DNA from: a virus
Lineage: Duplodnaviria; Heunggongvirae; Uroviricota; Caudoviricetes
Length of the DNA stretch: 49,189 nucleotides
Virus record (IMG/VR): IMGVR_UViG_3300045988_153230
Direction: 5' to 3' (one strand)
Shown here: in pieces, positions 1-45,046 of the stretch
Numbering within the stretch: the first letter of the stretch is position 1
Layout: every line of letters starts with the position of its first letter
Position numbers and translations under genes: made by a program
The notes under the pieces: generated by a model
The model's input: the letters and a program-made list of their open reading frames with translations, nothing else
What the model was told of the DNA's origin: nothing
The model's database searches: none

Positions 1-45
1 TTCAGCCAGGTTAAAGCCTCATCGCATGAGGACACACGATACTCA

Positions 46-168
46 TCATCGTAGCTCAGGTCCGTAAACCTGTAGCTTTTTCAAATCAGCCAAAACCTTT
101 TCCTGAAGAGCGTCTTCTTGCTCATTTAGCCAGTCGTCAAATCGCTGGCTAAAAAGTACCGTCCACAT
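46..168 (-). pseudogene. Truncated RelE/ParE-family (Gp49/HigB-type) toxin remnant
   Basis: ATG at 168..166 opens a frame MWTVLFSQRFDDWLNEQEDALQEKVLADLKKLQVYGPE whose DNA at 55..109 is identical to 49135..49189 (5' part of the toxin gene at the right edge). After the junction at ~55 the frame stops at 48..46. Positions 1..55 are identical to 48278..48332 (inside the 126-aa gene) but out of frame and without a start. Confidence 0.55.
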
Positions 169-412
169 GTTCAATCCTATAACCTGTAGTTTATATCACT
201 AACTATATAACCTGTGAGTTATAATTTCAAGAAAAACGGGGCTATTTAACATAATGGACGTTATCGGCACCACCGGATCACCGTTCATTGTCGGATCTAA
301 AAAATCCGCTCAAAAGATCATGTTTTCCTGGGCGTTTTCCACCGTTTTTTATGTTGCTTATTTGTTAATGAAATCTCGTTTTCAGTTTCGCCTCATTTTC
401 GACGCGAAAGCC

Positions 413-703
413 CTATTTTTGTGACTTTACTCCTGGCATATGGACTTCCCAGCGACGAATCCCCATAGCTGCGCAAAAATCAGCCACATAATTCAATCCC
501 GCCCATTCGCGGATACCACCACGGGCTTTTTCAATGAAAACGGCAATCCCTTTTTTATTGAGAGCAAAAAGCCGCCAGCTTTTTGTCACTTCGTCCTGGG
601 TAGCCACAACACAAGTGAAAGCTCCCATGCGATACAGGTCCAAGAACTCTTTGCGTGTTTTGCGTACAAGTTCCATAACAAACCTCATATTTGCATGTTT
701 CAA
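413..703 (-). CDS. Hypothetical small protein (likely start at internal Met, ~91 aa)
   Basis: 96-codon ORF overlapping by 4 nt with the upstream ORF 700..999, suggesting a two-gene operon. No family recognised. Confidence 0.4.
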   Translation of the reverse strand: MKHANMRFVMELVRKTRKEFLDLYRMGAFTCVVATQDEVTKSWRLFALNKKGIAVFIEKARGGIREWAGLNYVADFCAAMGIRRWEVHMPGVKSQK

Positions 704-999
704 ACATCTGTTTTGTTATCAATGAAGATTAACCCTAACCCAGCGAAGTAACACAGCAGCGCCCAGGCTGCATACGGAATGCTGGATCTGGATGTGGACT
801 CCTTTAACATCTGCCAATTGCGAACATTGCGACTATCTTTTAAGCCAAGTTTTTTGGCCAACTGCGAGCCGCTCATTCCGGTCAGGCCAATGACTGCCCG
901 AACTTCTCCACATGTAGGAGACTCCCATTCATCCGCTTTTTTTAAACAAGCCGGATTCAACATTTTTAAAACAGTATCTTTATCCATAACCATCTCCAT
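700..999 (-). CDS. Small protein with predicted helix-turn-helix and hydrophobic C-terminus
   Basis: Segment LTGMSGSQLAKKLGLKDSRNVRNWQ resembles an XRE-type HTH; C-terminal stretch IPYAAWALLCYFAGLGLIFI is hydrophobic. Operonic with 413..703. Confidence 0.4.
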   Translation of the reverse strand: MEMVMDKDTVLKMLNPACLKKADEWESPTCGEVRAVIGLTGMSGSQLAKKLGLKDSRNVRNWQMLKESTSRSSIPYAAWALLCYFAGLGLIFIDNKTDV

Positions 1000-1379
1000 T
1001 TATTATATCTACGATGGTAGGAAATCTTTTCCTATGTGGCAATAGAAATTTACTACATTGCGTATAAGACAACTTTTCTATGTCTAATAGGAAATGATGT
1101 TTCTTACGTTTTATCGCGTTCTGATGGCTACTGTGTGCGTATTTATCGACGTTTATTGATAAGGCTCCCCCTTCCTCCTGCAAAGCCCGGCCGTAGGCCT
1201 TATTTCGTCCTTATATAAATTGATTTTGTATAGTTCGAAACGCGCCGTTTCGAAAAGGATGATCAGGCTACTCCATACCTCCGGCAAGTGCCGGAGGAGG
1301 TATATTTGAGCGTAGCGACTCGAACCGGCGCGAGCTTTAGCTCGCTGCAAGGGCGAACATATTCACAGGCAAAGCCTGC

Positions 1380-1630
1380 GTAAGTTAAATAAAGAAAGTT
1401 TTAATAAAAGAAAGTGATTTTGCATTTATTTGTTTAGTGCATCTATTATAAAAAACCATTTGCATATACATATCAAAACTGTGGATAACTTGATTAGTTG
1501 ATACCTGTAAAGGCGATATTTTTGCTGAGTTCAGGTTTAGAGAAAATTAATTTAGCTTGTTTTTTGAACAGCTATTTTTTTGCGACGTAGATAATCCTCC
1601 GGTAAAACCGGATTCATCATTCAGGTGAGT
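1380..1630. other. Putative plasmid origin (oriR-like) downstream of repA
   Basis: ~250 bp AT-rich non-coding stretch immediately 3' of repA with a consensus DnaA box (TGTGGATAA, complement TTATCCACA) at 1480..1488. IncFII-type replicons place ori just downstream of repA. Confidence 0.5.
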
Positions 1631-2478
1631 TAATGTTGGAGTGATTTCCAGGTCTTTCTTAGCCTGTTATAACGCTGCTCAACGAGGGATCGTAAATATG
1701 CAAGGTCAGCACCAGGATACATGCCATCAGCAAATTCCTGGCTAACCTCTCTAGTGATTTGATGACGAAGTTCGGCCTCTCCCTTTTCCTGAACAAGACG
1801 CGCAGCTCTCTCCGCTGCTTTCTGTTTTGCCTTTATCTCTCTGGCCGTCTTCCTCTGACGCCATACATTCTCCATCTGCTCCTGAATAACAATACGCTTA
1901 TAATCAGCCTCCGTTATCGCTTTTTTAAGCCGTTCACTATTCTTCGCATTGAAGTAATTAAGTTTCTGGCTAACCGCACGTCTCCATGCTTGTTCAGTAA
2001 TACCAACGGTTTCCAGCAGTTGATCACGAATCTCTATTTTCGCTGGCCAATACTGTTTATTCACCCGATCCCAGCGACGTTCATAATCAATAAAACCTAA
2101 CGCTTTCAGTTGCGACAACGCCCTTGTACAGCGCGTTATAGACTTGTTCCCAGCTTCGGATACGGTAGACAGGCCGCAAAAATCAGCCAACGCCTCAGCA
2201 CTAGCCAGAACCCGCTTAGAAATGATGTTTACATGGTGCAAAATCGCAGCGATCACAGCATTAATCGCCCGACGACGATGCTCGTTTATCCGGCGCTTCC
2301 GCTCTGACGGTTGATTAACGTAGAACGCAACCTCACACGTAAGATCACGCCCATTAATGCGCTGTAAAGCATCAGATAACACCAGCGGCAGCTTGTGCGT
2401 ATGGTGCTTTGGAGGCTGGAACTCCGGCGACAAATTACAAACGTAAGCTGAACGTAGAGACGGCATTGGTCTATCCAT
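1630..2478 (-). CDS. repA: Plasmid replication initiator, IncFII RepA1-like
   Basis: Conserved core ...RRRAINAVIAAILHHVNI...FCGLSTVSEAGNKSITRCTRALSQLKALGFIDYE... and basic C-terminal region match my recollection of R100/R1 RepA1. ATG at 2478 chosen (MDRPMPSLRSAYV...); the ORF track extends to 2607 with no better start. Confidence 0.75.
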   Translation of the reverse strand: MDRPMPSLRSAYVCNLSPEFQPPKHHTHKLPLVLSDALQRINGRDLTCEVAFYVNQPSERKRRINEHRRRAINAVIAAILHHVNIISKRVLASAEALADFCGLSTVSEAGNKSITRCTRALSQLKALGFIDYERRWDRVNKQYWPAKIEIRDQLLETVGITEQAWRRAVSQKLNYFNAKNSERLKKAITEADYKRIVIQEQMENVWRQRKTAREIKAKQKAAERAARLVQEKGEAELRHQITREVSQEFADGMYPGADLAYLRSLVEQRYNRLRKTWKSLQH

Positions 2479-2522
2479 ATGTTCGCTCTTGCGTCCACGG
2501 AAAACCAACGTATAATGGGAGT

Positions 2523-2598
2523 TGTCGAGGCGCCCATGGTTAGTTGTTGGTTTTCCGTGGATGTCGCAAGAAGCCCGCAGATTTATCTGCGGGCTTTT
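2523..2598 (+). ncRNA. Candidate CopA-like antisense RNA to the repA leader
   Basis: Plus-strand promoter-like TTGCGT-N16-TATAAT (2489..2516) followed ~55 nt later by a perfect hairpin plus T-run (GCCCGCAGATTTATCTGCGGGCTTTTT, 2571..2598), antisense to the region just upstream of the repA start. A 16-bp inverted repeat (2490..2505 / 2545..2560) sits in the same region. Confidence 0.4.
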
Positions 2599-2643
2599 TG
2601 TTTCCATATCTGGTCACTTTCCAACCAGACACCCACAATCATA

Positions 2644-2658
2644 ACCACGTTACGTGGT
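2644..2658. promoter_or_regulatory. Operator-like palindrome ACCACGTTACGTGGT upstream of repA
   Basis: Perfect 7-1-7 palindrome of the same ACCAC-N5-GTGGT type as the sites flanking the CI-like repressor gene. Confidence 0.4.
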
Positions 2659-2788
2659 TTTAAGAGAACTCTACCACAACACTTTCGGTCATGCACGAAG
2701 TCTCTCACTGATCGAACGATAATCCACCAGTAAAAGGATCTAAATTGGATCTCGTTTTGCGAGCATCATACTACTGGCCTAACTCCAG

Positions 2789-3343
2789 TCAATGATTCCC
2801 AGCCGGAAACCTGCGGTAAAGCGTGGATAAGGTAACATCGAAGATAATCGCTATCCGCTTACGTGAAACACCATTCGCAATAAGCCTTCCGATCTGTTCC
2901 CATTGCTCTGGTGCCAGCTTTGAGCGACGTCCTCCTATCCTGCCGTTAGCCCTTGCCACCGCCAATCCTGCACGCGTTCTTTCAATCATATTTTCCCGCT
3001 CCATCTCTGCGACTGCACTCAGCATCGTGTAGGCAAAGCGGCCAATTGAAGTGCTGATTTTTATCCCTTCCGTAATTGAAATAAACTCAATGTCGTTTGA
3101 TAAAAAATGGTTAAGTAAATCAACAAGATGAATCAGAGAACGCCCCATTCGGTCCAGCTTCCAGACAATAACCGTATCGCCCGGTCGTAACACCTTCAGT
3201 AGCTTATCAAGTCCTGGTCGTTTTGATTTAGCACCGGATATTTTATCTTCAAAAATCCGGTCACATCCTGAACTCCTGAGCGCCTCCAGTTGTAATTCCA
3301 AATTCTGGTCAAAAGTTGACACCCTCGCATAACCATATTGCAT
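2789..3343 (-). CDS. Serine DNA invertase, Gin/Pin/Cin/Hin family
   Basis: 184 aa; N-terminal GYARVSTFDQ with catalytic Ser, and C-terminal ...GRIGGRRSKL...VTLSTLYRR HTH, closely resembling Mu Gin/e14 Pin as I recall them. Adjacent to an invertible tail-fibre segment. Confidence 0.9.
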   Translation of the reverse strand: MQYGYARVSTFDQNLELQLEALRSSGCDRIFEDKISGAKSKRPGLDKLLKVLRPGDTVIVWKLDRMGRSLIHLVDLLNHFLSNDIEFISITEGIKISTSIGRFAYTMLSAVAEMERENMIERTRAGLAVARANGRIGGRRSKLAPEQWEQIGRLIANGVSRKRIAIIFDVTLSTLYRRFPAGNH

Positions 3344-3407
3344 ACTTTCTAAACCGCGATTGTTGCTAAAAGCGGGAAAAAATATCGTTCAGACGACACA
3401 GAGGCAA

Positions 3408-3433
3408 TTCGCAAAAACCTCGGTTTACAGGAA
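3408..3433. repeat. gix-like recombination site, left end of invertible segment
   Basis: Reverse complement reads TTCCTGTAAACCGAGGTTTTTGCGAA, matching my recollection of Mu gix (TTCCTGTAAACCGAGGTTTTGGATAA) over its first 20 nt. Inverted relative to the site at 6461..6486. Confidence 0.8.
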
Positions 3434-4420
3434 ACGGTAAACAGGGCTGGTAACGCCGTGCAAAAAAATGGCGATACCTTGTCCGGTGGGCTTACTTTTG
3501 AAAATGACTCAATCCTTGCCTGGATTCGAAATACTGACTGGGCGAAGATTGGATTTAAAAATGATGCTGATGGTGACACTGATTCATACATGTGGTTTGA
3601 AACAGGCGACAACGGCAATGAATATTTCAAATGGAGAAGCAAACAAAGCACCACAACAAAGGACCTGATGAATCTTAAATGGGATGCTTTGTATGTTCTT
3701 GTTAAAGCTCTTTTCAGCAGTGAAGTAAAAATATCGACAGTCAATGCACTGAGGATATTTAATTCATCTTTTGGTGCTATTTTTCGCCGTTCTGAAGAAT
3801 GCCTTCATATCATCCCTACCCGAGAAAATGAGGGGGAAAATGGCGATATAGGGCCACTACGCCCCTTTACGCTTAATCTCAGAACTGGTCGCATAACTAT
3901 GGGGCATGGTCTGGATGTTACAGGAGATATATTTACAAACCGTTTTTTAATTAACAGCAGTACAGGCATGTGGATTAATATGCGTGACCAGAACGTTATT
4001 ATGGGACGTAATGCGGTATCCACTGATGGTGCTCAGGCTTTGCTCCGTCAGGACCATGCCGACCGCAAATTTATGATTGGCGGTCTGGGAAATAAGCAAT
4101 TTGGCATCTACATGATTAATAACTCAAGGACAGCCAATGGTACCGATGGTCAGGCGTACATGGATAATAACGGTAACTGGCTTTGTGGTGCGCAAGTTAT
4201 TCCCGGCAATTATGGCAATTTTGACTCACGCTATGTGAGAGATGTCCGACTTGGCACACGTGTTGTTCAATTGATGGCGCGTGGAGGGCGTTATGAAATA
4301 GCCGGACACGCACTTACCGGATTAAGAATTATTGGTGAAGTTGATGGCGATGATGAAGCTATCTTTAGGCCGATACAAAAATACATCAATGGCACATGGT
4401 ATAACGTCGCACAGGTGTAA
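3408..4420 (+). CDS. Alternative tail-fibre C-terminal segment (Sv'-like), silent in this orientation
   Basis: Frame is open through the gix site and encodes LGLQETVN, the same peptide encoded at the gix site inside the tail-fibre gene (EYLGLQETVN). No own start; the ORF track's start at 3458 is GTG. Followed directly by a Tfa paralog. Confidence 0.7.
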
Positions 4421-4951
4421 ATGATGCAGCATTTAAAAAATATTAAGTCTGGAAATCCTAAAACGAAAGAACAATATCAGCTAACAAAGAATTTTGATGT
4501 TATCTGGTTATGGTCCGAAGACGGTAAAAACTGGTATGAGGAAGTAAATAACTTTCAGGACGACACCATAAAGATTGTATACGACGAAAATAATATTATT
4601 GTTGCCATAACCAAAGATGCCTCAACGCTTAATCCCGAAGGCTTTAGTGTCGTTGAGATTCCAGATATAACAGCCAATCGTCGTGCCGATGATTCAGGGA
4701 AGTGGATGTTTAAGGATGGATCTGTAGTTAAACGGATTTATACGGCAGACGAACAGCAACAACAAGCCGAATCACAAAAGGCCGCATTGCTTTCCGAAGC
4801 TGAATCAGTCATCCAGCCGCTGGAACGCGCTGTCAGGTTGAATATGGCAACAGACGAGGAACGCACACGACTGGAAGCATGGGAACGCTACAGTGTTCTG
4901 GTCAGCCGTGTGGATACGGCAAATCCTGAATGGCCACAAAAGCCTGAATAA
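4421..4951 (+). CDS. Tail fibre assembly protein (Tfa/U'-like), alternative copy
   Basis: 176 aa; N-terminus [25 protein letters not shown]... is paralogous to the convergent ORF 4980..5513. Typical position after a tail-fibre C-terminal segment. Confidence 0.85.
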
Positions 4952-4956
4952 AAATT

Positions 4957-4976
4957 AAGGCCCGCTATCGGGCCTT
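4957..4976. terminator. Bidirectional hairpin between convergent Tfa genes
   Basis: AAGGCCCGCTATCGGGCCTT perfect stem-loop between the two convergent Tfa ORFs. Confidence 0.5.
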
Positions 4977-4979
4977 GTC

Positions 4980-5513
4980 TCATTCCGGTTTTTCTGGAAA
5001 CGTTACTGGCAGGATGGAGGTATCTGTAGATTCGACTTTCTGTGCATATAGCATCCACTCGGTTAATTTCTGTTTATTCTCATCGGAAATGATGCCCAGC
5101 CGTAGCTGTGAGTCCCACAGTTGGGTTTTATCCCTGACAAGTTGCAACAGGCTTTGCTTTTCATTCTCTGCCTGCTGCCTCTGTTCTTCCTCGGTGTAAG
5201 TTCGCTTTATCACTACGCCATCTTTGAACATCCATTTACCCGAAATATCAGCCCGGCGATTTGCTGTAATATCAGGTAATTCAACGACGCTTGCGCCTTC
5301 CGGATTAATTGCTGAAACATCCTTTTCAATACAAATAATAACGCCGTTACGGTCATAGACCATTTTCAATGTGTCTGGCTGGAAATTCTTTTGTTCCTCA
5401 TACCAGTTTTTTCCATCATCTGAATAAAGCCATTTGATGTTAAATTGCTTTGTTAGCTGGTATTGCTCTTTTGTTTTAGGGTTGCCAGCAGTAATGTTTT
5501 TTAAGTGCATCAT
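4980..5513 (-). CDS. Tail fibre assembly protein (Tfa/U-like), expressed copy
   Basis: 177 aa; [24 protein letters not shown]...; immediately downstream of the tail-fibre gene. Confidence 0.85.
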   Translation of the reverse strand: MMHLKNITAGNPKTKEQYQLTKQFNIKWLYSDDGKNWYEEQKNFQPDTLKMVYDRNGVIICIEKDVSAINPEGASVVELPDITANRRADISGKWMFKDGVVIKRTYTEEEQRQQAENEKQSLLQLVRDKTQLWDSQLRLGIISDENKQKLTEWMLYAQKVESTDTSILPVTFPEKPE

Positions 5514-5515
5514 CG

Positions 5516-7834
5516 TTAAATACTCCCCGCGTTATACCACGTCCCATTAATGCAATACTGAATTGGCCTTGCCTGAGTTGTATCAATTAATTCATCACGG
5601 TTTCCGTTAACTGAACCCGTAACGACATAACCTGACCTGTCAGACCAGCCGGGACCATTCCATGTCTGAACAGATGACAGACCGCCCAGGCGAATACCTG
5701 TAATAAACCTTGAGTTACATTCTGCCTGCGTATATGCACCAACATCCCCCGCAGAGGGTTTGCGGGTTGTGGTGTAAAACTCTGACCAGTTAGCTTCAAA
5801 GCCATAACCATCACGCGCTGAACGATAAAAGATACCGCCGTTCTTATAATTCACGCGGAACTGTACAGCAGGGCAACTCCCCGCATTCATATTAAAGTGG
5901 AGGATTAATGTCGATGCACCACTGATATCTGCATCATAAACACCGCTATTCCAGTTCCAGCCAACAGCTTTATCATTTGCAACCCTGCTTCCTGTTTGCC
6001 CTAAAGCAAATGCAGGCTGCTGGTTTTTCGTATTGTAGTCTCTTCGCCAGCCAGGAGCATAAGCATCACCATGATTAATATAAGTGAATTGAGCGTTAGT
6101 GATTCCGCCGCCGCTGGACGTACTCGGAGTAGTAACGCGTATGGTCATTGCGCCGCGAGTGCCAATAACTTCCACCACAGCACCTGCAAGACAAATATTT
6201 CCGCAACCTGTATCTGTAATGACCTTATTATTTGCATAAGCCCATGAGCCTTTGCACATCCAGTAAGGATGGTTAAATGCTCCCTGACTCTCCAGCCACG
6301 AAATAAATTGCGCGGTTGTCCAGACCTGACTATCGCCACCAATATTCAGCCATGGGCTGTATGCGCGGCAGGCACCAATATTTTTGGTGAAGGTATCTTT
6401 TCCTGGAATATCTGCGCCGTTCTGGTTTTTCTGTAATGCGCCAGAAGCCTGATTTACCGTTTCCTGCAAACCGAGGTATTCGATAACGGCAGCAACGGTC
6501 GATTTCGCAAGAATATCCCGCCCGACTTTTGTCAGGGTTGCCAGGCTGGCGACATCATTCCCCGTAAAATACGGAAACTTGTCTGCCGAAGTAGCAAGCC
6601 CGGCCAGCGCCGTCAGGGTGGCATCTTTCGGTTGCTTACCCGCAAGCGCGTTAGTCATGGTGGTCGCAAAATTCGGGTCGTTGCCCAACGCCGCAGCCAG
6701 CTCGTTTAGCGTATTCAGTGCGTCAGGCGACGAGTCCACGAGGGCAGCGATCGCAGCCATAACATAAGCCGTGCTTGCGATCTGAGTATTGTTAGTACCT
6801 TTTGGCGCAGTTGGTGTTGTTGGTGTTCCGGTCAGCGCAGGACTGTTTAAGGGCGCTTTCTTGTTCGTTTCATCCATTACCGCCTTAACAGCTTTTGGTG
6901 TCGCAGCCAGCGTTTCAGACGTGCTGTTAGTGGCACTACTGAGCTGAGTTATTCCCCTTACAGTCAGTGAAGCTACAGGCACATTTGTTATCTGCTCCCA
7001 CGAATGCGTGTGATTGGACGGAGCCTTTCCGGCCGCAAGATCATACGCTGCCTTAACAGCCTTTGGTGTTGCTGCTAGCGTTTCAGACGTGCTGTTGGTG
7101 GCACTACTGAGCTGAACAATCCCTTTTCGCGCTGTGGTAGCGTCCTGTGCGGTGTATTTAGCGTTAGCAAGGTCATATGCTGCCTTAACAGCCTTAGGCG
7201 TCGCAGCAAGCGTTTCAGACGCGCTATTGGTGGCGCTGCTAAGTTGAACAAAGCCTTTTGAGGTTAAAGTTGCATCAGGATGATTACGTGATTGCTCATG
7301 TTTCACAATGGCTTGCTTAAGCCGCTTTGCTGAAACAGCAAGGGAATCATCTGTACCTGCCTCAATTTCTTGTTCATTAGCAAATCTTGCCACCCCAACA
7401 ACAGTTTCGGTCGCGGGAGGATTAATAAACTCAATATCACCAAATGTAATATTTTTAGTATCAAGAGTCTTAATTGCTATATCACTTGATATTAAAGCGA
7501 TAGTAGATGATGCTTTATTTATTATTGCTTGTTCTTGTGAGTATACAGCAAACAACGCCCCCTTATTCGTATACAATCCTATTGTATGGACAACATACTC
7601 ATCTTTACTATCATCCTTCGCTGTTACATGAATTGTATCAGGGGAAACAACTTTGCCACCTATTGTGGTAAGTCGTTTTATTTCGTTTGTTATATTTGTT
7701 TGTGAGGTTGACGTGACATAATATCTACTACCTAAACCAACAGAAACAATCTCAACTTTATTTGTTCCTGTTTTGTTGGCATTAACCAACTCCTGACGCC
7801 CGGCGTCAGTCATCGTAAATAATAATTTACTCAC
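5516..7834 (-). CDS. Tail fibre protein (P2 gpH / Mu S-like), constant N-terminal part plus invertible C-terminal part
   Basis: 772 aa; N-terminus MSKLLFTMTDAGRQEL resembles P2 gpH N-terminus (first codon is GTG). Contains three ~70-bp internal repeats (about 6885..7250) and the gix site at 6461..6486 inside the coding sequence. Confidence 0.85.
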   Translation of the reverse strand: MSKLLFTMTDAGRQELVNANKTGTNKVEIVSVGLGSRYYVTSTSQTNITNEIKRLTTIGGKVVSPDTIHVTAKDDSKDEYVVHTIGLYTNKGALFAVYSQEQAIINKASSTIALISSDIAIKTLDTKNITFGDIEFINPPATETVVGVARFANEQEIEAGTDDSLAVSAKRLKQAIVKHEQSRNHPDATLTSKGFVQLSSATNSASETLAATPKAVKAAYDLANAKYTAQDATTARKGIVQLSSATNSTSETLAATPKAVKAAYDLAAGKAPSNHTHSWEQITNVPVASLTVRGITQLSSATNSTSETLAATPKAVKAVMDETNKKAPLNSPALTGTPTTPTAPKGTNNTQIASTAYVMAAIAALVDSSPDALNTLNELAAALGNDPNFATTMTNALAGKQPKDATLTALAGLATSADKFPYFTGNDVASLATLTKVGRDILAKSTVAAVIEYLGLQETVNQASGALQKNQNGADIPGKDTFTKNIGACRAYSPWLNIGGDSQVWTTAQFISWLESQGAFNHPYWMCKGSWAYANNKVITDTGCGNICLAGAVVEVIGTRGAMTIRVTTPSTSSGGGITNAQFTYINHGDAYAPGWRRDYNTKNQQPAFALGQTGSRVANDKAVGWNWNSGVYDADISGASTLILHFNMNAGSCPAVQFRVNYKNGGIFYRSARDGYGFEANWSEFYTTTRKPSAGDVGAYTQAECNSRFITGIRLGGLSSVQTWNGPGWSDRSGYVVTGSVNGNRDELIDTTQARPIQYCINGTWYNAGSI
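6461..6486. repeat. gix-like recombination site inside tail-fibre gene, right end of invertible segment
   Basis: TTCCTGCAAACCGAGGTATTCGATAA, near-identical core to the site at 3408..3433 in inverted orientation. Confidence 0.8.
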
Positions 7835-10963: not shown

Positions 10964-11965
10964 TTAATACCCATTAATTACTCTTCGGACATCAATCGAG
11001 GTGGTATAACCACTAGCCCCAATTGAATGCACAGCTTTCGATATAAGATATTTTCCAGAAAATAAACCGAATCCGTCCAGATTTATAGTTACACCAGCTA
11101 CCAATCTGGTGTCTCCAACCAATACTAAAGATCCGGTATTTTGATATCTATTTTTAAGCCGCAAAGCAGCCTTTGCCTTACGTTTTGCTTCATCTAAATT
11201 AGCTACCAGTTTTCTTATCTTAAGATTCGACCCTTCTTCTACGGATGGATCTACCCAAGTATACGAAAGCGACTTTCTTTTTTTAGGTACGCGATATTTG
11301 CACGTGCAACTTTTATACAAATCTGTAGATTGTGTGCTAAAGCTATATCTGATTATCTCATCAATACCTAACGTAAGCGTAGCGATAGGATCTTTTTGCT
11401 CAAACATCTCTTGAGCAAATATTATTAATTGGCTATCAGTGACCTTTAACGACAACCCTTCATCCTGGCAAAGTCGATGGAGAAATTTTAAATCGCTTTC
11501 CTCCATTTGATCTTCACGCGCATAATATGGATTACTATCACCATCAATAAGAAACAACAGTTCAAGGTTAGCTAATTTAGCTATAGAAGTTGCTATATCT
11601 TTAAGAGTTGTTTTTTCCCATGCATTACTTTTTAAATCACGTCTAATGCCTGATGAAACAGGAACAGAAACAGCAGTTACCTCAACAACAGAAGGTGGTC
11701 CAGAGCAAGTTATGCCATCTACCTGGAATTTCCCGCACTCAAGGACGATTTGATTTATAGGCTTAAAGCTCAAATCAATAAAATCACCCTTTTTAGGTGT
11801 CCAGTCTCCAGACCATTTCCCATCATCATTTTTTAATATAATAGAAATATCATCGACCTGACCATCTTCATTATCTGTATAAGACATTGACAAAACATCA
11901 GGTGACATATGAGCGGTAATATTTACATTCTGATATATAACATCAAAAAGCGTTTTACGTAACAC
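10964..11965 (-). CDS. Tail protein D (Phage_GPD family)
   Basis: 333 aa; ...TLKDIATSIAKLANLELLFLIDGDSNPYYAREDQMEESDLKFLHRLCQDEGLSLKV... fits the gpD late-control/tail protein pattern. Confidence 0.7.
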   Translation of the reverse strand: MLRKTLFDVIYQNVNITAHMSPDVLSMSYTDNEDGQVDDISIILKNDDGKWSGDWTPKKGDFIDLSFKPINQIVLECGKFQVDGITCSGPPSVVEVTAVSVPVSSGIRRDLKSNAWEKTTLKDIATSIAKLANLELLFLIDGDSNPYYAREDQMEESDLKFLHRLCQDEGLSLKVTDSQLIIFAQEMFEQKDPIATLTLGIDEIIRYSFSTQSTDLYKSCTCKYRVPKKRKSLSYTWVDPSVEEGSNLKIRKLVANLDEAKRKAKAALRLKNRYQNTGSLVLVGDTRLVAGVTINLDGFGLFSGKYLISKAVHSIGASGYTTSIDVRRVINGY

Positions 11966-40859: not shown

Positions 40860-40878
40860 TTAACGAACTCCAATTAAA

Positions 40879-40996
40879 ACCACGATATGTGGTATTAAAA
40901 CCACATATCGTGAGTTTTTCAATGGGCGAAACAAAAAATAACCTTCTATTTGTGGTCCACCTCTCGTCTTACCATGTGAAAACCACTAAATGTGGT
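40879..40996. promoter_or_regulatory. Divergent promoter/operator region with three ACCAC-N5-GTGGT-type sites
   Basis: ACCACGATATGTGGT (40879..40893), ACCACATATCGTGAG (40900..40914, forming a 12-bp inverted repeat with the first), ACCACTAAATGTGGT (40982..40996), between the divergent early operon and the repressor gene. Confidence 0.55.
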
Positions 40997-41033
40997 AATG
41001 TATAAATAACCCACCATTCACGATTGATGAGAC

Positions 41034-41690
41034 ATGAAAAGCAACGACGAGAACATCAAGAAAGAAATAGGTCTGCGCATTCAGACTCTACGGAAACAAT
41101 CCGGCATGACTGCCGGAGATCTCCAGCAAGTCACTGGAATAGGCTTAAGCACCTTGCAGAACTATGAGGCCGGATTAAGACAACCATCTATACCTGCCAT
41201 CAAGAAAATTGCGCACGCCCTGAAAGCATCAGCGCCTTATATCGCGTGCTTAACAGATAACCCGTTCCCACCCCAGAATACTAACGCTCCTGTTATTCCT
41301 GGGCTTGTAGCTATAAAAAATGACATAGCATCGCACGCCGGAGAAAAGCCAGTGCTGGCGATAGAACAGGAGATTCTACGAAGCAAGAACATCAACCCAT
41401 CGTCTCTGTCAGTTCTCCAGAGCAACGATGAGTTAATGTCACCAACAATATCCCCAGGCTCCCAAGTCCTGATTGATACAGACGATACAGAGATTCATGA
41501 GGGGATCTATGCCCTTGAAGACAGAAATGGCCTGGTTGTTTTGAGGCACTGTAGAGTCATACCGGGTGACAATGCTGTTATGCTGTCAACCGAAAGGGAT
41601 GCTGAAATGAACACTAAGCATCTGAATAACGAGGAATTTAAGCGTTATAAAGTTCTTGGCCGCGTAGTTAGTGTTGTCAACTGGTTATGA
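41034..41690 (+). CDS. CI-like repressor, HTH plus S24 (LexA-like) peptidase domain
   Basis: 218 aa; N-terminal HTH (...IGLRIQTLRKQSGMTAGDLQQVTGIGLSTLQNYEAG...), C-terminal S24-like (...MSPTISPGSQVLID...FKRYKVLGRVV...). Followed by a hairpin (GCACGGCGAAAGCCGTGC). Confidence 0.8.
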   Translation: MKSNDENIKKEIGLRIQTLRKQSGMTAGDLQQVTGIGLSTLQNYEAGLRQPSIPAIKKIAHALKASAPYIACLTDNPFPPQNTNAPVIPGLVAIKNDIASHAGEKPVLAIEQEILRSKNINPSSLSVLQSNDELMSPTISPGSQVLIDTDDTEIHEGIYALEDRNGLVVLRHCRVIPGDNAVMLSTERDAEMNTKHLNNEEFKRYKVLGRVVSVVNWL

Positions 41691-41732
41691 TACACAGCAC
41701 GGCGAAAGCCGTGCATTTCTACGCTCAAAAAA

Positions 41733-41747
41733 ACCACGCTTTGTGGT
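41733..41747. promoter_or_regulatory. Operator-like palindrome ACCACGCTTTGTGGT
   Basis: Same ACCAC-N5-GTGGT architecture, upstream of ORF 41783..42157 and the par genes. Confidence 0.45.
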
Positions 41748-41782
41748 TTTGACAACATGTGAAAGTATAAAAGAGGCTACGC

Positions 41783-43940: not shown

Positions 43941-44044
43941 GCTGTTTGTGCTTGCGTGGTTGTATTAGTACAACGACGTTATGCTGAAAGGACCGCGAAT
44001 CCGATCAGCACGAAAGAACCGTCCTCAAAAGGACGGTTTTTTTG
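43941..44044 (+). ncRNA. Candidate small RNA with intrinsic terminator
   Basis: Begins with GCTGTTTGTGCTTGCGTGGT, a 19/20 copy of 43691..43710 (the putative 5' leader region of the small ORF on the other strand), and ends in hairpin CCGTCCTCAAAAGGACGG plus T7 (44019..44044). Confidence 0.35.
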
Positions 44045-44597
44045 TTTCTCCCCCTTCCTTCCCAAATGATTCAAATGTTAATGAGAGTGAATCATTTGAT
44101 ATGTTCGATTTAGCGCCGTTATCGACCCAATTTCTGTATGCTTCATCACAACAGTACCTTACAGCAGTTGGAGTAACAGGGATGCCGCCCCCAAATGAGA
44201 ATCCCATTGAGCTAATGCTAACTCTTTCGAATGGCCTATTTCTCAATGCTTCAAACCCCTTGCTATTAAAGTAACGCAGCATCAGAGGTAAAAGGTTATC
44301 CTCGTCCTGACTGATTGTTCCAGGGAAAAAGTAGTAACCATAACGGTTAAATTCGGGAATAAGATTTTCTACCAATGACATGAAATTCACTGGAGTAATA
44401 TTAAGGGCTGTGAAAGCACCAAAAAGGGCGTCAACTGTTAATACAGACTGCCCGTTCTCTATCTTTGTCCATGCGTTTGGTGTTTTTCCAGCAGCTTGAG
44501 CCAGCACTCCTTGATGCACACCTCTTTCTAGCCTAAGTTCTTTTATGATCATTAGGTGAATTGTTGAAAAACATGAGTTTTTTGACTGTTCAATCAT
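44025..44597 (-). CDS. HTH-domain protein with uncharacterised C-terminal domain
   Basis: 190 aa; N-terminal XRE-like HTH (...IKELRLERGVHQGVLAQAAGKTPNAWTKIENGQSVLTVDALFGAF...); C-terminal ~110 aa unrecognised. Confidence 0.55.
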   Translation of the reverse strand: MIEQSKNSCFSTIHLMIIKELRLERGVHQGVLAQAAGKTPNAWTKIENGQSVLTVDALFGAFTALNITPVNFMSLVENLIPEFNRYGYYFFPGTISQDEDNLLPLMLRYFNSKGFEALRNRPFERVSISSMGFSFGGGIPVTPTAVRYCCDEAYRNWVDNGAKSNISNDSLSLTFESFGKEGGETKKPSF

Positions 44598-45046
44598 TTT
44601 TTATCCCCATACTGAATTTTTTCTTGTTCCCGACTTTAACAAAATTCCACAACTCAGGACTGATTGATTCCCTACAGGAACTATACATTCCCATTTTTAG
44701 CATATCAAGAAAATTAAAAGCCCCGCATTCAAACCCACACTATGTGGTTTAGTCTGTTAAAATCCCTCTGTATTGACATAAATGCGCCATTGGTGGACAC
44801 TTTCCGAGCCGTAGCAAAATCTACGGTCGGGATTGGAACCCCGATAATCATCATGGCGCATACCGCGTTAGCGGTTTTTTTATGCGTAAAGCACTGCTAC
44901 ACCCAAATTATGGTGGGGCGTGCGGGGGAGTCGTAAGACTCGCCGGATTCCATGGTGACCGGTAGTTCCAACCCTGTACGTCTCACCACCCAATGATTGG
45001 AACCAGACGGTGGTGAGTATCCTTAACCTTTAAGGGAACTATCACC

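Follow-up and report, generated by a model that had tools for sequence, protein, structure and literature searches.

A temperate phage-plasmid replicon of the IncFII/IncL-M superfamily with a predicted antisense RNA, a candidate leader switch and a putative prophage operator

Introduction

In the IncFII replicon of plasmids R1 and R100, the origin lies past repA, behind a post-stop hairpin, a spacer, a DnaA box and AT-rich DNA, and replication is controlled at two levels, by the countertranscript CopA with its long bulged stem-loop II and CGCCAA loop, and by a repressor acting on a proximal promoter that follows an upstream, possibly constitutive promoter (PMC5717011, which also describes the role of CopB in R1). 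The IncL/M plasmid pMU604 and the I-complex plasmids (ColIb-P9, IncB/K/Z) combine an RNAI/Inc RNA with a repB or repY leader peptide and an activator pseudoknot (RF01089, RF01087; PMC10286972, PMC10724649), and, going by titles cited in PMC10724649, antisense RNA acts against an activating intramolecular interaction in ColIb-P9 and IncL/M. Here, we compare with these systems a locus that encodes a RepA of the same Pfam family as R1/R100: positions 1150-2800 of the IMG/VR virus record IMGVR_UViG_3300045988_153230 (Caudoviricetes), whose full stretch of 49,189 nt we call the window. This region is the plasmid-state replicon of a ~49 kb temperate Escherichia coli phage-plasmid.

Three further systems serve as functional points of comparison. 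RNAI of the staphylococcal RepA_N plasmid pSK41 is ~83 nt long and consists of a 5′ tail and two stem-loops; its binding ~100 nt ahead of the rep start has been proposed to trigger formation of a stem-loop in which the ribosome-binding site is sequestered (PMC5703833). In pT181 and pIP501, antisense RNA also induces refolding of the leader and thereby terminates transcription. Finally, the CB repressor of the linear phage-plasmid N15 binds three OR sites as well as two sites at the repA promoter and regulates copy number (PMC4488713).

A sequence-only reading of the window had proposed an IncFII-like replicon with probable CopA-type antisense control, and all sequence features that it listed are present at, or within 4 nt of, the places where it saw them. 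Our comparative analysis leads to a combined explanation that we hold to be fairly probable: RepA would act on an origin that directly follows its own gene, a predicted antisense RNA would inhibit repA by flipping a switch in the leader of its mRNA, and a phage repressor would gate the proximal repA promoter. The literature search that we conducted found no paper on this replicon.

Results

A predicted antisense RNA opposite the repA leader

The leader of repA was compared across 19 distinct homologues from plasmids, IMG/VR contigs, metagenomes and assemblies that form about four clades. This diversity was drawn from the protein database, IMG/VR and metagenomes, and scans of genome contigs with RepA peptides and with the leader core gave no matches. 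On the strand opposite repA, a predicted antisense promoter at 2489..2516 (plus strand) consists of a -35 hexamer TTGCGT (2489-2494), a 16-nt spacer and a -10 hexamer TATAAT (2511-2516). The two hexamers and their 16-nt distance are unchanged in 19/19 homologues and 4 spacer positions vary, as would be expected of a promoter. The plus-strand promoter-like element of the sequence-only reading is thus present, and it draws its weight from this invariance: TTG..TATAAT patterns occur in the window at the rate expected by chance (2 seen versus 2.3 expected), so the case for a promoter rests on conservation.

The transcript predicted to start here is an antisense RNA of ~80 nt (2521..2603, plus strand) with a 5′ tail, stem-loop 1 (2529..2565) and stem-loop 2 (2566..2603), the latter an intrinsic terminator with a GC core at 2573-2581/2586-2594 and a T-run at 2595-2603. 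Its predicted fold has a minimum free energy (MFE) of -39.2 kcal/mol in the window (z=-5.2), and all 19 distinct homologues share the same two hairpins between a start near 2521-2524 and the T-run. Compensatory changes are found at two stem pairs of stem-loop 1 and, as an A-U to G-C change in 5/19 sequences, in stem-loop 2, where 100% of the alignment cells are paired. The covariation score for these compensatory changes at 3 pairs was reached by 0/500 shuffles, and partners slid out of register pair in 44-53% of cases. The two-hairpin fold belongs to a plus-strand transcript, because standard pairs fill 99.0% of the cells on the plus strand versus 79.9% on the complement, with 97 G.U cells, and all one-sided substitutions preserve pairing on the plus strand. 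The terminator hairpin that had been seen at 2571..2598 and the candidate antisense RNA of ~75 nt are thereby borne out, the latter as a predicted plus-strand countertranscript of ~80 nt that is well supported by comparative evidence.

We consider it likely that this putative RNA, from its invariant promoter to the terminator at 2573-2603, is the main copy-number inhibitor and incompatibility determinant of the replicon. Its complement in the repA leader would lie 57-137 nt ahead of the start codon. Several points weigh against this assignment: the covariation comes from few independent events, given about four clades and 20/27 pairs that never vary; the antisense RNA, its transcription start and both repA mRNA promoters are predictions; and the -35 hexamer is weak, matching the consensus at 3/6 positions, so that a consensus promoter scan left the antisense promoter unlisted. 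The scanner also missed the terminator.

The chance-level frequency of the promoter pattern and its absence from the scan would also fit an account without any functional antisense RNA, in which the hairpins act within the repA mRNA as stabiliser, attenuator or terminator of read-through from the neighbouring invertase gene and TATAAT is kept because of its place in a constrained mRNA loop. The whole 2486-2537 block is near-invariant, so conservation of the hexamers is not specific by itself, and a weak U-rich tail (CUUCUU) follows the terminator hairpin on the minus strand, too. However, the hairpins pair far better on the plus than on the minus strand, the variable promoter positions are confined to a spacer of fixed length, and no gene on the plus strand is there for the plus-strand terminator to serve. 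Moreover, the hairpin persists in a homologue that lacks the invertase gene, and related replicons have a countertranscript at the same place. We therefore regard an exclusive role within the repA mRNA as improbable and favor the antisense RNA.

The loop of stem-loop 1 (about 2540-2556) is hypervariable, with substitutions and indels of +2, +3 and +5 nt among near-identical copies, and 10/12 distinct E. coli-clade variants are distinguished by nothing else. Such hypervariability is known for the incompatibility-determining loops of RNAI and CopA (PMC10724649); here, the cause may be diversification of incompatibility or slippage within a GTT-rich tract. Weak Rfam matches of the leader to Thr_leader (31.8 bits) and CsrC (22.7 bits) were dismissed because they reflect only a hairpin-plus-terminator shape and all lie below the gathering scores.

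Relation to known leader types and the start of repA

Rfam searches of window positions 1-6000 (E<=10) found no CopA (RF00042), PK-repBA or PK-repZ, whereas the classical IncFII/FIC locus L024, our positive control, gave CopA at 99.4 bits; none of these three families was found in the relatives with 80-85% identity (L002, L003 and L017) either. The window leader holds no CGCCAA/UUGGCG recognition loop, the nearest sequence being UGGGCG, and the predicted RNA combines a short terminator hairpin with a separate large-loop hairpin, unlike CopA. For a leader peptide of the tap or repB/repY type, we found no open reading frame (ORF) ending near the repA start that is conserved across clades: upstream ORFs lie in three frames, and a UGA overlapping the repA AUG occurs only in the K. 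aerogenes-type clade, where it ends a UUG-started ORF of 14 codons. Likewise, no ORF within 2480-2790 is conserved across clades that could represent copB, which agrees with the sequence-only reading. Its CopA-type control therefore does not hold as a statement of homology, and the window differs from R1/R100 in the lack of a CopA homologue, tap and copB.

Among relatives with a recognisable leader, the nearest are of IncL/M type. The PK-repBA gathering score of 45 is passed by L004 (49.3 bits) and L025 (56.7 bits), and the relatives with PK-repBA leaders are L004, with 63% RepA identity, and a K. pneumoniae plasmid with 37%. The L004 leader has a UUGGCG loop, one long hairpin as terminator, a short ORF that ends with a UGA overlapping the repA start and a strong antisense promoter of RNAI type (11/12 consensus matches) at the position equivalent to that in the window; in both leader types, the antisense -10 box is 45-52 nt ahead of repA. 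The window leader thus has the appearance of an IncL/M/I-complex design that was rebuilt. In a Citrobacter freundii contig (L005; RepA 60% identical), we observed neither leader type and instead a 162-amino-acid ORF without Pfam match (2016-2504 of that contig) that overlaps the repA start by ATGA, and this suggests that the RepA family has a third way of arranging control.

The repA gene itself (1630..2478, minus strand) encodes 282 amino acids from ATG 2478 or 278 amino acids from ATG 2466, and a third in-frame ATG of this minus-strand ORF lies at 2607. RefSeq calls a RepA of 325-326 amino acids from ATG 2607, phage records label the same gene as hypothetical protein, and homologues at 81-85% identity are called as 277 amino acids. 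The Salmonella and Klebsiella clades have no ATG 2607. Among E. coli-clade variants, the repA start lies at varying distances from the terminator hairpin (+2, +3 and +5 nt), and the ORF from ATG 2607 is in frame with repA in 10/15 variants and out of frame in the remaining 5/15 (indels of +2 and +5). We therefore read the stretch at 2479..2607 (minus strand), annotated by RefSeq as an N-terminal extension of RepA, as non-coding leader, and the RefSeq protein is probably over-extended by 43-47 codons; the missing ATG and the frame shifts rule out a RepA of 325 amino acids as a conserved feature. This leaves ATG 2478 or ATG 2466 as the start. The former, chosen by the sequence-only reading, is in frame in the E. 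coli clade, has AAGAG before it and is plausible, while the latter (MPSLRS...) is the start that is conserved across clades.

ATG 2607 also matters for a rival in which control would work by leader-peptide coupling of the CopA/tap or RNAI/repB type: the antisense RNA would block the ORF from ATG 2607, whose ribosomes would otherwise open the leader helix described below. In the E. coli clade, where this ATG is conserved, the antisense target ends only 7 nt away from it, the ATG is preceded by GGAAAG in a hairpin loop, and its ORF is open across the repA start in every variant, whatever the frame; furthermore, the PK-repBA-type leaders of L004 and L025, and the short L004 ORF with its stop at the repA start, would be precedents among relatives. 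Yet the clades without ATG 2607 keep the promoter, both hairpins and the helix, and the variants that have lost the frame run out of frame through more than 60 repA codons, which would hinder rather than help RepA synthesis. Together with the lack of both a conserved ORF ending near the repA start and any match to CopA, PK-repBA or PK-repZ, this gives leader-peptide coupling a low probability, and we prefer a switch that needs no peptide.

A candidate switch in the repA leader

The 16-bp inverted repeat that had been noted upstream of repA is real and perfect (16/16), with its arms at 2494-2509/2546-2561, 1-4 nt from where the sequence-only reading had placed them. In the predicted fold of the repA mRNA, it extends to a helix of ~25 bp (z=-9.7) between arm A (2545..2569, minus strand) and arm B (2486..2510, minus strand). 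The repeat does not lie alongside the antisense RNA as had been proposed: a single arm, A, falls within the antisense target, and the most fitting reading of the repeat is a helix in the mRNA that would be disrupted by the antisense RNA. Arm B lies outside the target because it contains the antisense promoter, and it can pair either with arm A or with the repA translation-start region A′ (2463..2483, minus strand), which is complementary to it and includes both candidate ATGs. A further leader hairpin upstream (2609..2631, minus strand) also lies outside the antisense target and is predicted in all clades, where it is formed from different sequences (CUGGU/ACCAG, UUGAC/GUCAG or UGGCA/UGCCG). 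Because MAFFT did not place this hairpin and arm A in register across clades, we compared folds of individual sequences instead of pair counts.

The A:B duplex is predicted at -17 to -31 kcal/mol in all clades and shows compensatory changes such as G-C to A-U and A-U to U-A. The B:A′ duplex is predicted at -13 to -17 kcal/mol in every clade, compared to -6.6 to -10 kcal/mol with shuffled A′, and the fraction of shuffled A′ sequences that pair at least as well is 0.003-0.063; A:B is always the stronger duplex. The sequence of A′ differs much between clades while its complementarity to B is kept (from B CGUUGGU/A′ ACCAAUG to CGUUGGA/UUCAACG). When folds were constrained such that the antisense target was blocked, B paired in every clade with the stretch between the conserved ACAUGG and the repA AUG, and paired bases around the repA start rose in 6/8 representatives.

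The long repeat could also be a DNA-level element, that is, a cruciform or a protein-binding site, considering that it is perfect and that the DNA sequence of the repA-proximal arm is highly conserved. However, pairing persists through compensatory changes where the sequence differs, one clade shows a U.G pair that only an RNA of mRNA sense could form, the spacing of the arms varies from 36 to 41 nt through indels, which is unusual for a protein site, and the arm sequence has no repeats elsewhere. A DNA-level role is therefore very improbable, and we continue with the repeat as an RNA helix.

Under the switch that we propose, A would pair with B in the free repA mRNA so that the start region A′ stays open. 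The antisense RNA would bind the leader, probably first by contact between the hypervariable loop of stem-loop 1 and the open apical loop of the mRNA helix, and take arm A away, upon which B would pair with A′ and bury both candidate start codons. This arrangement would require no leader peptide, and a long A:B helix would stand in place of the short pseudoknot that acts as activator in I-complex and IncL/M plasmids. The folding data make such a three-part switch, with A:B and B:A′ as alternative states flipped by the antisense RNA, a plausible yet tentative model to which we give slightly less than even chances. Several findings speak against it: arm A is degraded in L017 and L019, the unconstrained MFE structure of L019 is already the B:A′ hairpin, the AAGAG upstream of ATG 2478 is partly paired in the A:B state, and the Shine-Dalgarno-like sequences ahead of the conserved ATG are weak, with two start codons as candidates.

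Like IncL/M and I-complex replicons, the window would thus have antisense binding compete with an intramolecular interaction that holds the repA start open; unlike these, it has a helix of 16-25 bp for the short pseudoknot, two antisense hairpins for one, and no conserved leader peptide. Near the repA start, we searched for a GGCG/CGCC partner that could form a pseudoknot with the conserved GGGCGCC loop; the sole candidate, GUCGCCGG at ~2421-2435, was rejected as it is confined to the E. coli clade. Transcription attenuation was ruled out since no U-tract follows the A:B or the B:A′ hairpin, and this sets the window apart from the terminating leaders of pT181 and pIP501. The mechanism proposed for pSK41 is the same as the one that we suggest here, although pSK41, pT181 and pIP501 have unrelated initiator families and hosts and no sequence homology to the window, so that the likeness is functional only.

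A probable repressor operator at the proximal repA promoter

Two candidate promoters on the minus strand could drive repA. The proximal one, P2 (2668..2676), has an extended -10 element TGGTAGAGT with a predicted start at ~2661, and its TGnTA(G/A)AGT is kept in 16/16 aligned leaders. The upstream one, P1 (2765..2792), consists of TTGACT, 16 nt and TATGAT (10/12 in the promoter scan) and is conserved in most homologues, including one without the invertase gene. Between P1 and P2, we also observed a pair of GATCC motifs (2733-2750, ~11 nt apart) whose position is conserved across clades amid variable surroundings and which could be a Dam/SeqA or protein-binding site.

Immediately downstream of the predicted P2 start, at +3 to +19 of its transcript and also downstream of P1, lies the perfect palindrome AACCACG-N3-CGTGGTT (2643..2659), a probable operator of a CI-like repressor. 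In the aligned leaders, its arms are invariant and its 3-nt centre is variable. Allowing up to 2 mismatches, AACCAC-N5-GTGGTT matches the window 8 times versus 1.7 expected, a count reached by 0/100 shuffles. Three copies lie at 40878-40997, between a divergent gene and the gene of a CI-like protein of 218 amino acids (41034-41690) whose HTH_3 domain and sub-threshold Peptidase_S24 domain give it a CI/LexA-like architecture; others are found at 41732-41748, just downstream of this gene, and at 44733-44749, and two-mismatch matches also occur at 11684 and 29521. A Salmonella homologue has the motif at the same five corresponding places. We further note that sites of the form AACCAC-N5-GTGGT(T/A) surround the CI-like gene and sit upstream of a second gene with a helix-turn-helix (HTH) motif (44025-44597), an arrangement that looks like the immunity region of the phage-plasmid.

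A LexA-type, CI-like phage repressor would bind 2643-2659 and gate P2, which would tie repA transcription to the lysogenic state and take the role that CopB has in R1. The suggestion of the sequence-only reading that an operator substitutes for CopB fits well with these data: from its sequence context, the palindrome is very probably a repressor operator, with a motif that recurs at the CI-like gene. That it is the operator of this particular repressor and links repA to lysogeny is a reading that we hold with moderate confidence. Two points count against it: the Peptidase_S24 match of the putative repressor is below the Pfam cut-off (20 versus 23.3 bits), and the palindrome could also act as a hairpin at the 5′ end of the mRNA.

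The latter would make 2643-2659 a 5′-terminal stabilising hairpin of the repA mRNA, unless it is a site of RepA autoregulation. Its location at the very start of the predicted P2 transcript would suit such a hairpin, which is formed in the MFE structure, and invariant arms around a variable centre fit a hairpin loop as well as an operator. Against both roles, the motif recurs at five further sites, of which three fall between the CI-like gene and the divergent gene next to it, in both the window and the Salmonella homologue. Furthermore, the motif scan of the window found no copy in the origin, where RepA must bind, which argues against RepA as the binder, and N15 provides a precedent for a prophage repressor at a repA promoter (PMC4488713). 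We thus consider a stabilising hairpin or RepA site unlikely and the CI-like repressor the better candidate. The likeness to N15 lies in the link between copy number and the lysogenic repressor; the RepA of N15 is an unrelated initiator of primase-helicase type with an internal origin, and the window has a single perfect operator at repA that is putative from sequence.

RepA and the origin downstream of its gene

RepA matches Pfam IncFII_repA (PF02387) with E=1e-43, which confirms the repA call of the sequence-only reading as a real ORF, and its best NCBIfam model is NF040977 RepA_IncFII_LM (232.2 bits with a cut-off of 70, over the full model length). It stays below the strict IncFII equivalog TIGR03474 incFII_RepA (78.9 bits versus a cut-off of 446.9), which is another difference from R1/R100, and in tblastn comparisons with IncFII plasmids, identity is ~31% over 45% of the protein.

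The origin was compared in an alignment of 18 homologues, which shows four elements after the repA stop, in this order: a hairpin TCCGG..CCGGAGG, a poorly conserved spacer of ~90 nt, a near-invariant block and a GC-rich hairpin cluster. The first hairpin (1596..1612, minus strand), just past the stop, is kept in all homologues and also follows repA in L024. The DnaA box TTATCCACA is found exactly at 1480..1488 (minus strand), as had been reported, and is the sole exact copy in the 49-kb window; it is exact in 13/18 homologues, has one mismatch in the rest and always lies ~142 nt past the repA stop. GC content flanking the box is 23-30%, in line with the AT-rich region of the sequence-only reading, and the stretch after it is 76-82% AT. 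This AT-rich origin core (1383..1479, minus strand) contains three ATGCA(A/C)(A/T) motifs (at 1465, 1442 and 1425) and two ACTTTCTTT repeats, and everything from the DnaA box through these motifs and repeats is near-invariant across clades, while the spacer at 1490-1590 is not conserved. Beyond it, the GC-rich hairpin cluster that flanks the origin (1150..1382) is strongly conserved and has compensatory substitutions in its stems (CAGGC/GCCTG versus CAGAC/GTCTG; GCGAGC/GCTCGC versus GCGGAC/GTCCGC). It may be a priming or single-strand initiation (ssi) signal or a small RNA.

In L024, the DnaA box has the same orientation, lies 176 nt past the stop and is followed by AT-rich DNA. Because L024 shares the post-stop hairpin, the orientation of the DnaA box and the AT-rich DNA, the term IncFII-like replicon is right at the level of superfamily and origin layout; it fails at the level of the IncFII equivalog and of the leader, since CopA is found in L024 but not in the window. 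We are highly confident that RepA is a member of the IncFII/IncL-M superfamily that acts on the origin just downstream of its own gene. Like R1/R100, the window thus has the origin past repA with post-stop hairpin, spacer, DnaA box and AT-rich DNA and, as predicted, two levels of control through a countertranscript and a repressor-controlled proximal promoter behind an upstream, possibly constitutive one.

Beside the origin, a gene of 99 amino acids (700-999, minus strand) with an HTH-like segment has no Pfam match, and just upstream of it lies a conserved palindrome AGGAAA-N3-TTTCCT (1005-1035). This gene probably encodes a small autoregulated regulator.

The phage-plasmid and its distribution

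The window is 99.8% identical to the circular E. coli plasmid pESBL3215 (49,148 bp) and to Yersinia phage vB_YpM_39, one of 3 isolated Yersinia phages that match it (the others are vB_YpM_41 and vB_YpM_44). A further ~60 plasmids of Escherichia, Salmonella and Klebsiella, non-mobilizable and 46-52 kb in size, share 98-99% identity with it. Its gene neighbourhood comprises an invertase with an invertible tail-fibre segment, baseplate and tail genes, a ParA-like ATPase and a CI-like repressor. Given these matches to both plasmids and isolated phages as well as the phage- and partition-type neighbour genes, the window is a temperate E. coli phage-plasmid of ~49 kb. Two other assignments, to the pSLy3/SSU5 group or as pECO-bc6, were both wrong. 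The replicon region is present in 71/5426 complete E. coli genomes (~1.3%), in all cases on plasmid records and with 0 chromosomal copies. A complete homologue has no second replication initiator annotated, and PLSDB gives no MOB-suite replicon type for records of this phage-plasmid.

Next to the replicon, the invertase (2789-3343) is of Cin/Hin type (Resolvase and HTH_7 domains) and adjoins the invertible segment of ~3 kb (3415-6479), which is bounded by inverted crossover sites at 3415-3435 and 6459-6479 and contains alternative tail-fibre ends and assembly genes. At the window ends (1-180 and 49xxx), a RelE/ParE-type toxin gene with HTH antitoxin is apparently split by the boundary, as judged from the pESBL3215 annotation, which is consistent with a circularly permuted complete element.

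Discussion

None of the parts described here overturns current understanding, because antisense control, sequestration of ribosome-binding sites and repressor-gated repA all have precedents. What the comparison adds is a possible picture of how they were combined: a widespread but untyped phage-plasmid replicon may have rebuilt the I-complex/IncL-M circuit with a three-part RNA switch, a recognition loop under diversifying selection that would give many mutually compatible variants, and gating of the proximal repA promoter by an SOS-cleavable CI-like repressor. As a whole, this picture is speculative and, in our view, rather doubtful in its full extent. If the model holds, it would show how an antisense/pseudoknot circuit can lose its leader peptide and how a prophage repressor can be wired into a replicon of the IncFII family.

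The phage-plasmid family in question spans E. coli, Salmonella, Klebsiella and infective Yersinia phages, yet its replicon is untyped and its repA mis-annotated. Once defined, the antisense RNA and its variable loop would provide a typing and incompatibility marker along with a corrected repA annotation. For the biology of the element, the proposed control would, if true, mean that one initiator serves both low-copy maintenance in the lysogenic state and lytic replication upon induction.

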